A stretch of DNA of 64,000 nt from Escherichia coli 042 (GTDB lineage Bacteria > Pseudomonadota > Gammaproteobacteria > Enterobacterales > Enterobacteriaceae): the NCBI RefSeq assembly GCF_000027125.1, contig NC_017626.1; one strand, written 5' to 3'. Numbering within the stretch: position 1 is the stretch's first letter; the number at the start of each line of letters is the position of its first letter. Positions 5,558 through 27,352 of the stretch are shown here, piece by piece. The notes beneath the pieces were generated by a model that saw only the letters and a program-made list of their open reading frames with translations, did no database searches and was not told where the DNA came from. The position numbers and the translations under genes were made by a program.

Positions 5558-5656
5558 GCCGGATGCGGCGCAAACGCCTTATCCGGCCTACAAAATCATG
5601 CTAATTCAATATATTGCAGAAATATCGTAGGCCTGATAAGCGTAGCGCATCAGGCA
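5558..5656. repeat. Two REP elements in opposite orientation (BIME-like) between convergent yfeS and cysM
   Basis: gccggatgcggcgcaaacgccttatccggcctaca and gtaggcctgataagcgtagcgcatcaggc match the REP family also seen at 6630, 26870-27352, 52003 and 56676. Confidence 0.7.
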
Positions 5657-11641: not shown

Positions 11642-12499
11642 TCATTTCAGGCGTTGCGTTAGCTCACTGCTGCGCTCAATCATTTTCAATGACTCCACAT
11701 CATTGAGTTGCACAAGGCCAACAAACAGTAAATCGGTAACAGAATTTTGCGCCGTGCGGGTAGACATCGACGAGCTACGCCATTCGGTTTCACCGGAAAC
11801 GGTATCGAGCGTGAAATGCGCCAGCCGCCGCAGCGGAGAATCGGTTAACGAGGTAATGGCAATCACCGTTGCCCCCTGCTTTCGTGCTGCCTCGGCGCAC
11901 AAGACAATCTCTTTTTTACTGCCGCTGTAAGAGATAGCGATTTGTACATCGCCTTTTTTTAGCGCCTGAGAAACGGTGGCTTGTACGTGCGTGTCGGCTT
12001 CACAGGCCACGCGATAGCCAATTTTCATCAGTTTGAACGACAGATCGCGCCCCACCAGCGCCGACCCGCCCAGGCCCGTTATCTGGATAAACGGTGCTTT
12101 ACTGATGGCCTCAATGATTTTTTGCAGCCGCGCGTAGTCGAACAACGCGCAGGTTTGCTCCAGCGCCAGCTCTTTTTCGCGATTCAGTTTGCGGGCAATC
12201 ACTTCCAGCGAATCATCACTGGTAATCGAACTGTGCAGGTGCAGCGCCGTGGCATTCGTTTTCTCCCGGCTGGCACTGTATTCGCCAATTAACGCCATAC
12301 GCAATTCAGTAAATCCTTGCGCGCCGAGCTTCTGGGCAAACTTCACAATACTCGACTGACTGATGCCGAGCTGTTTCGCCATCTTGCGCGAAGAGACAGA
12401 TTTCAGCTCACTCACGTTGGCCCGCAGAAAGTCAGCAATTTTTTGCTCGTTCCCGGTAAATTCACTTTCCGCATTGCGTATTTTCGTCAGGTACAACAT
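11642..12499 (-). CDS. murR: RpiR/MurR-family transcriptional repressor of murQP
   Basis: Track ORF 396 aa is an upstream extension; the 285-aa product starts at [14 protein letters not shown] (HTH) and carries a SIS domain; divergent from murQ. Confidence 0.9.
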
Positions 12500-12662
12500 C
12501 TTCCACTCTCCTGGGCTGGCAGCAAAAATTCCGCTTAAGTTCTTATGACGCTCTTCACACTCTGCGAGTGTAGACTCAATGATTCCTTTAAGTCTGTCAA
12601 TTCGGGATATATGATTCCATACATCTGCAATTATTTGATCGTAAATAGTAAGGTCACCACCG

Positions 12663-13559
12663 ATGCAACTTGAAAAGATGATTACCGAAGGCTCGAACGC
12701 CGCCTCGGCTGAAATTGACCGCGTATCAACGCTGGAAATGTGCCGGATTATCAACGATGAAGATAAAACCGTGCCGCTTGCCGTTGAGCGCGTACTGCCG
12801 GATATCGCCGCGGCGATCGATGTTATCCACACCCAGGTAAGCGGCGGCGGGCGTCTGATTTATCTCGGTGCGGGAACATCCGGTCGTCTGGGGATTCTGG
12901 ATGCCAGCGAATGTCCGCCCACCTACGGCGTGAAACCAGGCCTGGTAGTTGGATTAATTGCTGGCGGCGAATATGCCATTCAGCACGCGGTGGAAGGCGC
13001 GGAAGATAGCCGGGAAGGTGGTGTTAACGATCTGAAAAATCTTAATTTAACGGCACAGGATGTGGTGGTTGGGATTGCGGCCAGCGGACGCACGCCGTAT
13101 GTGATTGCCGGACTGGAATACGCGCGCCAGCTCGGCTGCCGCACAGTGGGAATTTCCTGTAATCCGGGGAGCGCCGTTTCAACCACCGCAGAGTTTGCCA
13201 TTACACCGATTGTAGGTGCCGAAGTAGTCACCGGTTCTTCGCGAATGAAAGCAGGCACGGCGCAGAAACTGGTGCTCAATATGCTTTCCACCGGGCTGAT
13301 GATTAAATCCGGCAAAGTGTTCGGCAACCTGATGGTCGATGTGGTCGCCACCAACGAAAAACTGCATGTGCGCCAGGTCAATATCGTCAAAAACGCTACC
13401 GGATGTAGCGCAGAGCAAGCGGAAGCGGCATTGGTTGCCTGCGAGCGCAACTGTAAAACGGCCATTGTGATGGTGCTGAAAAATCTCGATGCCGCAGAAG
13501 CTAAAAAACGCCTGGATCAACACGGCGGCTTTATTCGTCAGGTTTTAGACAAGGAATAA
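12663..13559 (+). CDS. murQ: N-acetylmuramic acid 6-phosphate etherase
   Basis: 298-aa [29 protein letters not shown]...; SIS-domain etherase; followed by murP. Confidence 0.95.
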
Positions 13560-13562
13560 CCC

Positions 13563-14987
<1,425 letters not shown>

Positions 14988-14991
14988 TAAT

Positions 14992-15109
14992 ATGAAACGG
15001 ACAATGCTCTGTCTTTCTCTGCTGGCTGTCAGCTGTAGCGTCAGCGCCGCAAAATACCCTGTTCTGACAGAAAGTAGTTGATCAAGTGTATGCGGCGTTA
15101 AAGCAGTAA
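14992..15109 (+). pseudogene. yfeW: Probable remnant of yfeW (PBP4B / DD-carboxypeptidase) after an internal deletion
   Basis: ATG at 14992 with RBS 5 bp after murP encodes a signal-peptide-like MKRTMLCLSLLAVSCSVSAAKYPVLTESS then a stop at 15079-15081; a different frame ends ...VYAALKQ* at 15107-15109. K-12 order as I recall it is murP-yfeW-yfeX with yfeW about 430 codons. Confidence 0.45.
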
Positions 15110-15113
15110 TAAA

Positions 15114-15146
15114 AAGGCCAGTCAGTTGTGATACTGGCTGGCCTTT
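15114..15146. terminator. Bidirectional hairpin terminator between the yfeW remnant and convergent yfeX
   Basis: aaaaaggccag-tcagttgtgata-ctggccttt: GC stem flanked by A-run and T-run. Confidence 0.55.
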
Positions 15147-15166
15147 AATCATCGAATCAGAAACGA

Positions 15167-16150
<984 letters not shown>

Positions 16151-16161
16151 TCAGACGCAAA

Positions 16162-16737
16162 TTAACGCCGCCAGATAATTTTACTGACTTTCCAGTTTTT
16201 CAGGGTATCGTCCGAAGGCATTAACCCTTCAGGACCACTCCATTCCCCGCTGAACTGGTAGCTAATATGTTGACTGCCTTCGGCTTTACATTCGACGGCA
16301 CGATTATCATCACCATCAGCTTTTTGGCAATTGCCAAATGCTTTGCTGTAAAGGTCGCTAAACGGTGTACCGATTTTAACACCGGTGTCAGCAGGAATAT
16401 CGCTATCCAGCACATCAATGCGGCTGATCGTACCCTGATCGCCGTTAATCACCATCGCCACGTTGTCGCCTTTCATCACTTCAAAAAAGCGCACCACGTT
16501 GCCGTTCGCGGTTTTCATTCCGCTGCGCAGGCGATAATCGCCATCAAGCGCATCGGCAATGGGTTGTTCTTGCAGTGGTGTGGACGCCGTTAATTCACCA
16601 ACGCCCTGCTCGCTCACTTTGGTGGACGACCCAAACCAGTTCCACGGGTTAGCGGCAGACCAGTTAACTGACGACATCGTGGAACAGCCGGTCAGCATCA
16701 GCGGCATAGCGCATAACATTAAACGCAGCGATTTCAT
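16162..16737 (-). CDS. yfeY: Lipoprotein YfeY
   Basis: 191-aa ORF with lipobox MKSLRLMLCAMPLMLTGCS. Confidence 0.9.
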   Translation of the reverse strand: MKSLRLMLCAMPLMLTGCSTMSSVNWSAANPWNWFGSSTKVSEQGVGELTASTPLQEQPIADALDGDYRLRSGMKTANGNVVRFFEVMKGDNVAMVINGDQGTISRIDVLDSDIPADTGVKIGTPFSDLYSKAFGNCQKADGDDNRAVECKAEGSQHISYQFSGEWSGPEGLMPSDDTLKNWKVSKIIWRR

Positions 16738-16797
16738 GTCACTTCCTTTGGTTATTCAATAACGTTGCTTGGAGTGCAAATTCACCAAAAAGTGCCG

Positions 16798-17247
16798 TTA
16801 TTCTTTTTCTTCATTAAAACAAGCGCGTAAACGTCGATTGGTCAGCAGCCAGATTAACGCCACAATATCCGCCACTACCAGCGCCAGCCCGATACCGCTA
16901 ACGGATTCACCGTTCAGCCACAGCCACGGTTGCCAGCAAAGTAAAACCACTTGCGCCAACAGCAACAGAAAATAGAGCACATGCCAGATACGGGGAAATG
17001 AAGCCCGCCGACCACTCAGCAAAAACGCCAGCACCGCCGGAATGCCGGGAATCAACCCCAGCCAGAAATTATCGTGATCGGGATAAAACAGATTTAGCAG
17101 CGCAGTACCCTGCTCGCGCGACGCACCGGCAATGACAAACAGCACCCAGGTTCGCGCCTGAAGCAATAGCACAAGCCAGAAGAGCAAGGGTAAACGCAGG
17201 CGACCGTGCGCATCATAATGGACAGGATGAAACTCAGTACTCTTCAT
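16798..17247 (-). CDS. yfeZ: Inner membrane protein YfeZ
   Basis: Hydrophobic roughly 149-aa ORF; the choice between the two adjacent in-frame ATGs (17253 or 17247) is uncertain. Confidence 0.85.
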
Positions 17248-17659
17248 CTTCAATCAAACGCTTACCCAGACTTAGCACGTCGGCGTGTTCATATCCCAGG
17301 CGTTCATACATTCCGAGCACCATGTCGTTATCTTCCGGCACGTTGATCTGAATTTTCGGGCAGCCGCGAGCAATCAGCTTTTTCTCCAGCCGATTAAGCA
17401 ACGCATTAGCAATCCCACGCCCACGAAACTCTGGATGCACGCCAAGATAATAAGCAGACCCGCGATGCCCGTCATAACCGCCCATCACCGTTCCGACCAC
17501 TTCACCGTTTACCTCAGCGACCAGAAACAAACTGACGTCATGGTTCATCTTACGCTCGATGTCCATTTCCGGATCGTTCCACGGACGCAGCAAGTCGCAA
17601 CGCTCCCAAAGGGTGATGACCTCTTCGAAATCTTCCTGGCGAAATACGCGTATCTCCAT
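17234..17659 (-). CDS. ypeA: GNAT-family N-acetyltransferase YpeA
   Basis: Track ORF is N-terminally extended; product from [21 protein letters not shown] is 141 aa with the GNAT acetyl-CoA motif ([10 protein letters not shown]). Confidence 0.9.
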
Positions 17660-17872
17660 GGTATTCGTTACCTTTTTGCGGGTTAAAAGGCTGATTATGG
17701 CGTGAACGGTCGAATTAGCCAATATCTGACGAAAATCGGTTGAAAAAGTGGCATAATGAGGAGTTGTCAACTATTGAAATGAAAAGTAAAACAATTCTCA
17801 ACAGCAAACGGTCGTAACGGATTACGCGATACGATATAACATCTGGAACTTTATTATTACAACTCAGGCCGT

Positions 17873-18742
17873 ATGAGCACTTTTAAACCACTAAAAACAC
17901 TCACTTCGCGCCGCCAGGTGCTGAAAGCCGGTTTGGCTGCCCTGACGTTGTCAGGAATGTCGCAAGCCATCGCCAAAGACGAACCTTTAAAAACCAGCAA
18001 CGGACACAGCAAGCCGAAAGCTAAAAAATCTGGCGGCAAACGTGTCGTTGTTCTCGATCCAGGCCACGGCGGGATTGATACCGGAGCGATCGGGCGCAAC
18101 GGTTCGAAAGAAAAACATGTGGTGCTGGCGATTGCTAAAAACGTCCGTTCCATTTTGCGTAATCATGGGATTGATGCGCGTTTAACGCGTTCTGGCGATA
18201 CGTTTATCCCACTTTACGATCGCGTTGAAATCGCCCATAAACATGGCGCAGATCTGTTTATGTCAATTCATGCCGATGGCTTTACCAACCCGAAAGCTGC
18301 CGGTGCTTCGGTATTTGCCCTCTCTAACCGTGGGGCAAGTAGCGCAATGGCGAAATACCTGTCTGAACGCGAAAACCGCGCCGATGAAGTTGCCGGTAAA
18401 AAGGCGACTGACAAGGATCACCTATTGCAGCAAGTGCTGTTTGATCTGGTGCAAACCGATACTATTAAAAACAGCCTGACGCTCGGCTCGCATATTCTGA
18501 AAAAGATTAAGCCGGTGCATAAACTGCACAGCCGCAACACCGAACAAGCCGCGTTTGTGGTGTTGAAATCGCCGTCGGTTCCTTCGGTGCTGGTGGAAAC
18601 CTCGTTTATCACCAACCCGGAAGAAGAGCGGCTGTTAGGCACGGCAGCATTTCGCCAGAAAATCGCCACAGCGATTGCCGAAGGCGTGATCAGTTATTTT
18701 CACTGGTTTGACAACCAGAAAGCACACTCGAGAAAGCGGTAA
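17873..18742 (+). CDS. amiA: N-acetylmuramoyl-L-alanine amidase A (Tat-exported)
   Basis: 289-aa ORF with twin-arginine signal (SRRQVLKAGLAAL) and an amidase_3 domain. Confidence 0.95.
   Translation: MSTFKPLKTLTSRRQVLKAGLAALTLSGMSQAIAKDEPLKTSNGHSKPKAKKSGGKRVVVLDPGHGGIDTGAIGRNGSKEKHVVLAIAKNVRSILRNHGIDARLTRSGDTFIPLYDRVEIAHKHGADLFMSIHADGFTNPKAAGASVFALSNRGASSAMAKYLSERENRADEVAGKKATDKDHLLQQVLFDLVQTDTIKNSLTLGSHILKKIKPVHKLHSRNTEQAAFVVLKSPSVPSVLVETSFITNPEEERLLGTAAFRQKIATAIAEGVISYFHWFDNQKAHSRKR

Positions 18743-26868: not shown

Positions 26869-27352
<484 letters not shown>

Follow-up and report, generated by a model that had tools for sequence, protein, structure and literature searches.

A widespread deletion allele of yfeW (pbp4B) between murP and yfeX in Escherichia coli 042

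What is left of yfeW, the gene for PBP4B, between murP and yfeX in this strain, and how far does its loss extend among E. coli genomes? In K-12 MG1655 the locus is arranged as murQ-murP-yfeW with yfeX convergent, and yfeW is 1305 bp long. The K-12 murQ operon has been described as murQ-murP-yfeW, with a terminator drawn after yfeW (PMC5061867, citing Jaeger & Mayer 2008). In the stretch of DNA analyzed here, which is 64 kb long and is referred to as the window, the murP and yfeX stops are separated by a spacer of 179 bp (14988-15166, from the window sequence and the ORF table), very near the 180 bp given in the original prediction. This short spacer is not shared by K-12, which holds the full 1305-bp yfeW at this place. 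The features of the region are as follows.

12250-18600, no strand assigned: putative recombinant tract of ~6 kb, ~2% divergent from the KK19-02 lineage, from the 5' end of murR to the 5' end of amiA
13563-14987, plus strand: murP, intact, 474 aa, second gene of the murQ operon, stop TGA at 14985-14987 (ORF list)
14992-15074, plus strand: yfeW/pbp4B 5' remnant, equivalent to K-12 yfeW nt 1-83 (signal peptide and a few mature residues)
14992-15081, plus strand: residual ORF of 29 codons, which arises where the frameshift meets the TGA at 15079-15081
15074-15075, plus strand: deletion junction, with G15074 assignable to either side; K-12 yfeW nt 84-1267 are absent
15075-15109, plus strand: yfeW 3' remnant, equivalent to K-12 nt 1268-1305 less one Lys codon, reading (V)VDQVYAALKQ and a stop in a frame that differs from that of the 5' remnant
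15113-15146, no strand assigned: hairpin found by folding, putative bidirectional terminator of the murQ operon (plus strand) and yfeX (minus strand), unaffected by the deletion
15167-16066, minus strand: yfeX (porphyrinogen peroxidase), intact, convergent with the yfeW remnant, stop at 15167-15169

Both ends of yfeW can be recognized in the spacer. The 5' remnant was identical to K-12 (L001:4103-4185) at 80 of 83 nucleotides by blastn. The residual ORF, which begins with the ATG at 14992 and is translated as MKRTMLCLSLLAVSCSVSAAKYPVLTESS before its stop, matched residues 1-29 of K-12 YfeW at 28 of 29 positions by tblastn (96.6%, E=6e-11); a signal-peptide-like N-terminus of 29 codons that ends in a premature stop had been predicted from the sequence, and similarity to the YfeW N-terminus is indeed found. 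The C-terminus-like end that had been noticed in another frame is present as well: the frame from 15074 reads VVDQVYAALKQ up to the stop at 15107-15109, and in a tblastn search of the whole 64-kb window it matched YfeW residues 423-433 at 100%. Taken together, the two remnants span 14992-15109, exactly the 118 bp that had been proposed for a two-ended remnant. The predicted start codon and ribosome-binding site held up only in part, in that the ATG is there and the RBS is weak (GGA only, 8 nt 5' of the ATG). Because this ATG lies only 4 nt past the murP stop, translational coupling from murP to the residual ORF is plausible.

Alignment of window positions 14900-15250 to K-12 by blastn placed the end of the left block at L001:4185 (yfeW nt 83) and the restart of the right block at L001:5369/5370 (nt 1267/1268), with one G shared between them. 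The deleted piece is yfeW nt 84-1267, or 1184 bp encoding residues 29-422, which gives an exact size to the internal deletion of roughly 1.2 kb, with both gene ends and the terminator kept, that the original prediction had described. Since 1184 bp is not a multiple of 3, the frame changes and a premature TGA follows. The beta-lactamase-fold domain of YfeW (PF00144, residues 44-412 by Pfam) lies wholly within the deleted part, as does SNTK at residues 102-105, the likely active-site motif, so that the remnant lacks the PF00144 domain with its active-site SxxK. Against the NCBIfam PBP4B equivalog model NF002968, the residual ORF scored 24.3 bits over model positions 1-28 only, whereas K-12 YfeW scored 890 bits over positions 1-432; the curated cut-off is 385 bits over about 432 positions. 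A tblastn search with K-12 YfeW found no second yfeW copy in the 64-kb window, where only residues 1-29 and 423-433 were matched.

The sequence lies in the orthologous position, directly 3' of murP and convergent with yfeX, and begins with an N-terminal signal peptide. Compared with K-12 yfeW (b2430), the window shares the locus, the start codon, the signal peptide (28 of 29 residues), the last 11 codons and the 3' hairpin, whereas K-12 keeps the missing 1184 bp and one extra Lys codon. Intact PBP4B has the same fold as AmpH and the class C beta-lactamase-fold PBPs (PF00144, with weaker NCBIfam matches); the remnant keeps none of it. By synteny and the 28/29 N-terminal identity we identify the sequence as the pbp4B locus, though not as a working gene: its ends are homologous to an intact orthologue, its interior is missing and its frame is broken, as in a pseudogene formed by internal deletion. 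As judged from the sequence, PBP4B cannot be made from the remnant, because the entire beta-lactamase-fold domain is gone. The anticipated loss of a low-molecular-weight PBP is thereby upheld, with the whole PF00144 domain inside the deleted stretch and no further copy in the window.

The hairpin that follows the remnant is intact, as predicted, and folds strongly. On the plus strand it has a folding energy of -24.5 kcal/mol (z=-5.5) and is followed only by UUU; on the minus strand the energy is about -20 kcal/mol and the hairpin is followed by UUUUUAUUA, which includes a U5 tract. It thus resembles a terminator for both directions, with the better fit to yfeX. A simple consensus terminator scan reported no site at the hairpin, because its T-tract rule is too strict here. 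The hairpin is identical to the one after the intact pbp4b of MSB1_7C, a gene that likewise ends in ALKQ and a stop. K-12 differs in that the yfeW/yfeX terminator hairpin is present twice, with a ~184-bp REP/BIME-like insert separating the copies (L001 5408-5646); both MSB1_7C, with its intact yfeW, and the window are without this insert and without the extra Lys codon. In the window, the murQP transcript would cross 118 bp of dead sequence before reaching this same putative terminator.

The original prediction had hoped that the junction could show how the deletion happened. We mapped the endpoints and the microhomology by alignment to K-12, as it had proposed, and the result (nt 84-1267; 1-2 bp) carries little mechanistic information. 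With a K-12-like parent the microhomology is 1 bp (G), and it is 2 bp (GT) if the parent had a T after GAAAG, as in MSB1_7C. Direct and inverted matches up to 40 bp from each endpoint reached 7 nt at most, the longest lying away from the breakpoints; matches of this length are about what chance gives, the mean longest match in shuffled sequence being 5.9 nt. No inserted bases, IS ends or IS scar were found at the junction. Deletion mediated by repeats or by an IS was rejected on these grounds (no above-chance repeats within 40 bp, no extra junction bases), and repeat slippage, a site-specific event and transposon excision are likewise not indicated by the junction signature. The junction looks like the product of a one-off illegitimate recombination.

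We then considered the distribution of the allele. A 91-mer spanning the junction was found once each in 1272 of the 5426 RefSeq-complete E. coli genomes, at 94-100% identity, and a 1-kb query across the junction was collinear in 1274 of 5426. K-12 yfeW was at least 80% covered in 4148 genomes, and elsewhere only nt 1-81/83 were matched; the deleted and full-gene states together account for nearly every genome. As carrier genomes match yfeW nt 1-83 only, the gene has not been relocated in them. Carriers, laboratory and major reference strains among them, include Nissle 1917, 83972, ATCC 25922, O25b:H4-ST131, ST1193, APEC O1:K1:H7, SE15 and E2348/69, along with E. coli B/BL21, PCN033 and porcine O139:H1 ETEC, while yfeW is kept in O157:H7, O55:H7, O145, O111 and K-12. 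We take Nissle 1917, 83972, ATCC 25922, ST131, ST1193, APEC O1, SE15 and E2348/69 to belong to phylogroup B2, and E. coli B/BL21 presumably belongs to phylogroup A. The deletion allele seems to be the rule in phylogroup B2, with scattered occurrences outside it such as that in E. coli B/BL21. A degenerate junction pattern had no exact match in 100,044 GTDB species representatives, so that at this sampling nothing points to the allele beyond E. coli.

In carriers, the 87-bp ORF is already annotated by PGAP as a pseudogene, "hypothetical protein; incomplete; missing C-terminus" (E2348C_RS29185 in E2348/69 and SR36_RS25560 in BL21, and also in Nissle, ST131 and others). Over the 5' remnant E2348/69 does not differ from the window; it has the same junction, and 1 base is different in the terminator loop; between these PGAP-annotated carriers and the window, the flanking murP allele differs. 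What had been presented as a strain-level cell-wall difference is therefore a widespread, ancient and already annotated pseudogene allele, with an identical junction in 1272 of 5426 complete genomes; it is an ordinary lineage marker, not a strain-specific novelty. Our literature search found no description of a natural yfeW deletion. Two carriers showed further peculiarities at this locus. In E2348/69, murR is also missing, and ucpA is followed by murQ after a 280-bp gap (L002 784-1064), which suggests that murQP may be expressed without regulation in that strain. In H69 (NZ_CP080235.1, O139:H1 W13-16), the annotation has an IS200C element within the matched murP-yfeX region, and the alignment there falls into two segments ~0.7 kb apart.

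How did one junction come to lie in so many genomes? Very probably, yfeW was deleted once, long ago, and the pseudogene remnant has persisted as a presence/absence polymorphism, spread and re-flanked by recombination. A single illegitimate-recombination event would have removed yfeW nt 84-1267 and fused codon 28, in the wrong frame, to the final 11 codons; at the 5' end the start and signal-peptide codons would have survived, and at the 3' end the gene's own stop and the putative bidirectional terminator. From there the allele would have been distributed by the sorting of lineages and by homologous recombination, which moved it or gave it new flanks, as appears to have happened in the window itself.

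The window was compared with KK19-02, its nearest relative among complete genomes (99.4% identity), and 129 differences were found over 20 kb; in the mismatch profile, 125 of the 129 lie between about 12250 and 18600, and the genome is otherwise near-identical to the KK19-02/Ecol_316/THO-008 lineage. The deletion is present in both the window and KK19-02, on different haplotypes. We interpret 12250-18600 as a homologous-recombination import that carries the deletion allele. The right half of the tract, from yfeX to amiA, is identical to AST215 (0 mismatches over yfeX and about 2 kb beyond). The left half (murQ-murP) reaches no more than 97.5% identity with any RefSeq-complete E. coli, and the last 431 bp of murP, at most 96.8% identical to any of them, form a rare allele; relative to K-12 and others, murP has 47-58 nucleotide differences but only 2-6 amino acid differences. 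Nine private, mostly synonymous changes cluster at 14793-14882 in the 3' end of murP. None of 5424 complete E. coli genomes has this patch, and searching GTDB species representatives and metagenome contigs for a 27-mer taken from it gave 0 exact matches. An exact-protein look-up placed the same MurP protein in many public assemblies; in the four NCBI contigs examined the spacer was identical to that of the window, one contig differing at 1 of 7425 positions, and the patch is present in GCA_047844345.1, GCA_000242055.1, GCA_014968245.1 and LR134238.1. An import of the patch from another species was rejected, there being no exact match in representatives or metagenomes and the haplotype being found in NCBI E. 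coli assemblies. Because it occurs in several such assemblies, the murQP haplotype is that of a real E. coli lineage that merely lies outside the RefSeq-complete set. Two gene models in the compared sequences are interrupted, and each may reflect an assembly error: amiA is annotated as frameshifted in KK19-02 (L004 12874-13742), and ypeA is split into short ORFs in LR134238.1 (L011 6672-7034).

In 14 of 14 deletion alleles sampled across diverse genomes the breakpoint was nucleotide-identical, and alignments in 1272 genomes extend over the junction. That the same deletion arose repeatedly at a mutational hotspot in separate E. coli lineages could be argued from the differing flanking haplotypes on which the allele sits and from the unrelated strains, B2 strains and BL21, that carry it. 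The flanks do vary: BL21, G5, CX04 and Z1323CEC0015 have K-12-type terminator variants, and in Nissle, ST131 and APEC O1 (L017, L013 and L014) the spacer between murP and the remnant is 2 bp shorter (TGA-TT-ATG versus TGA-TAAT-ATG). However, such variation is explained by recombination in E. coli, which is directly visible in the window, and identical breakpoints with only 1-2 bp of microhomology, at endpoints whose direct and inverted repeats are not above chance, make independent recurrence very unlikely. The point most favorable to recurrence is Z1323CEC0015 (L012 359-540), which has intact-like variants just right of the junction. An A at window position 15085 is found in 13 of 14 deletion alleles, and both intact genes examined have G; Z1323CEC0015 has the same breakpoint with G at 15085, a private T beside the junction and the K-12-like extra Lys codon. 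The simple picture of one haplotype fails on this allele, which hints at a gene conversion patch, a back-mutation or early branching. We accordingly rejected A15085 as a marker of single origin, and since it is not universal, the argument for a single origin rests on the identical breakpoint. In BL21 the interval between yfeY and yfeZ is also longer, by about 146 bp, than in GF43 and the window (L005 4746-4953), and an ungapped alignment to the window fails from there. An artifact of assembly or sequencing, or an ancestral short form into which the long gene was inserted, can be considered effectively refuted. Independent complete assemblies that carry the junction number 1272, and further NCBI assemblies have it with an identical spacer; the long form is a full-length curated PBP4B equivalog (positions 1-432) with an intact PF00144 domain, and only a deletion accounts for two gene ends in different frames.

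Selection might also have acted on what the deletion left behind. The residual ORF starts 2-4 nt past the murP stop and is open, at 29 codons, in 14 of 14 sampled alleles, as might be expected if it were kept as a functional small peptide (a signal peptide and some 10 further residues) or if, as a translated spacer, it coupled murP to the terminator. Its variation argues otherwise: among 12 deletion alleles there were 3 synonymous and 6 nonsynonymous variants, against 64:5 in 117 codons each of the adjacent murP and yfeX (Fisher p=1.3e-4). This fits relaxed constraint, in a small sample and for a signal peptide, which is loosely constrained even in intact genes. With a length of 87 nt and about 2-4% divergence, moreover, neutral decay would not yet have closed the ORF; its Shine-Dalgarno motif is weak, and the one family that it matches is PBP4B, at the N-terminus and far under the cut-off. 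We regard a retained function of this kind as highly improbable. Somewhat less improbable, but still very unlikely, is a deletion polymorphism kept by selection, for example if PBP4B loss or altered murQP expression were favored in B2 and other extraintestinal lineages and repeatedly imported, or, relatedly, if the 29-codon ORF served as a secreted peptide or a translated leader. An Rfam scan of the spacer found no RNA family. Elsewhere in the window, three tandemly spaced copies of the naRNA4 repeat (RF02564) lie on the minus strand at 26919-27299, and there is one ES036 match (RF02751) at 5592-5634.

The single old deletion that we favor would have cost the cell little. PBP4B, a minor, low-abundance DD-carboxypeptidase, belongs to a redundant set of eight class C PBPs; it is synthesized at about 20-30 molecules per generation, and its contribution to pentapeptide trimming is small or null (PMC4916385). 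It is called nonessential in the title of Vega & Ayala 2006, as cited in PMC4916385. Because PBP4B is nonessential and present at only about 20-30 molecules per generation, its loss is probably close to neutral. With murR, murQ and murP intact in the window, MurNAc uptake and catabolism should be unaffected. An RNA-seq study listed yfeW (PBP4b) among the PBP genes with a strain-varying response in BL21(DE3) and HMS174(DE3) (PMC10768439); BL21 holds only the yfeW remnant.

The deletion matters mainly for bookkeeping and opens no new biological question. The "hypothetical protein" label that PGAP gives the pseudogene could become that of a pbp4b remnant, and the nucleotide-exact junction is a convenient marker of lineage and recombination. 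About 23% of complete E. coli genomes are naturally without PBP4B, and the missing gene should be allowed for when PBP redundancy, profiles of beta-lactam binding or "yfeW" transcript counts are studied in carrier strains.
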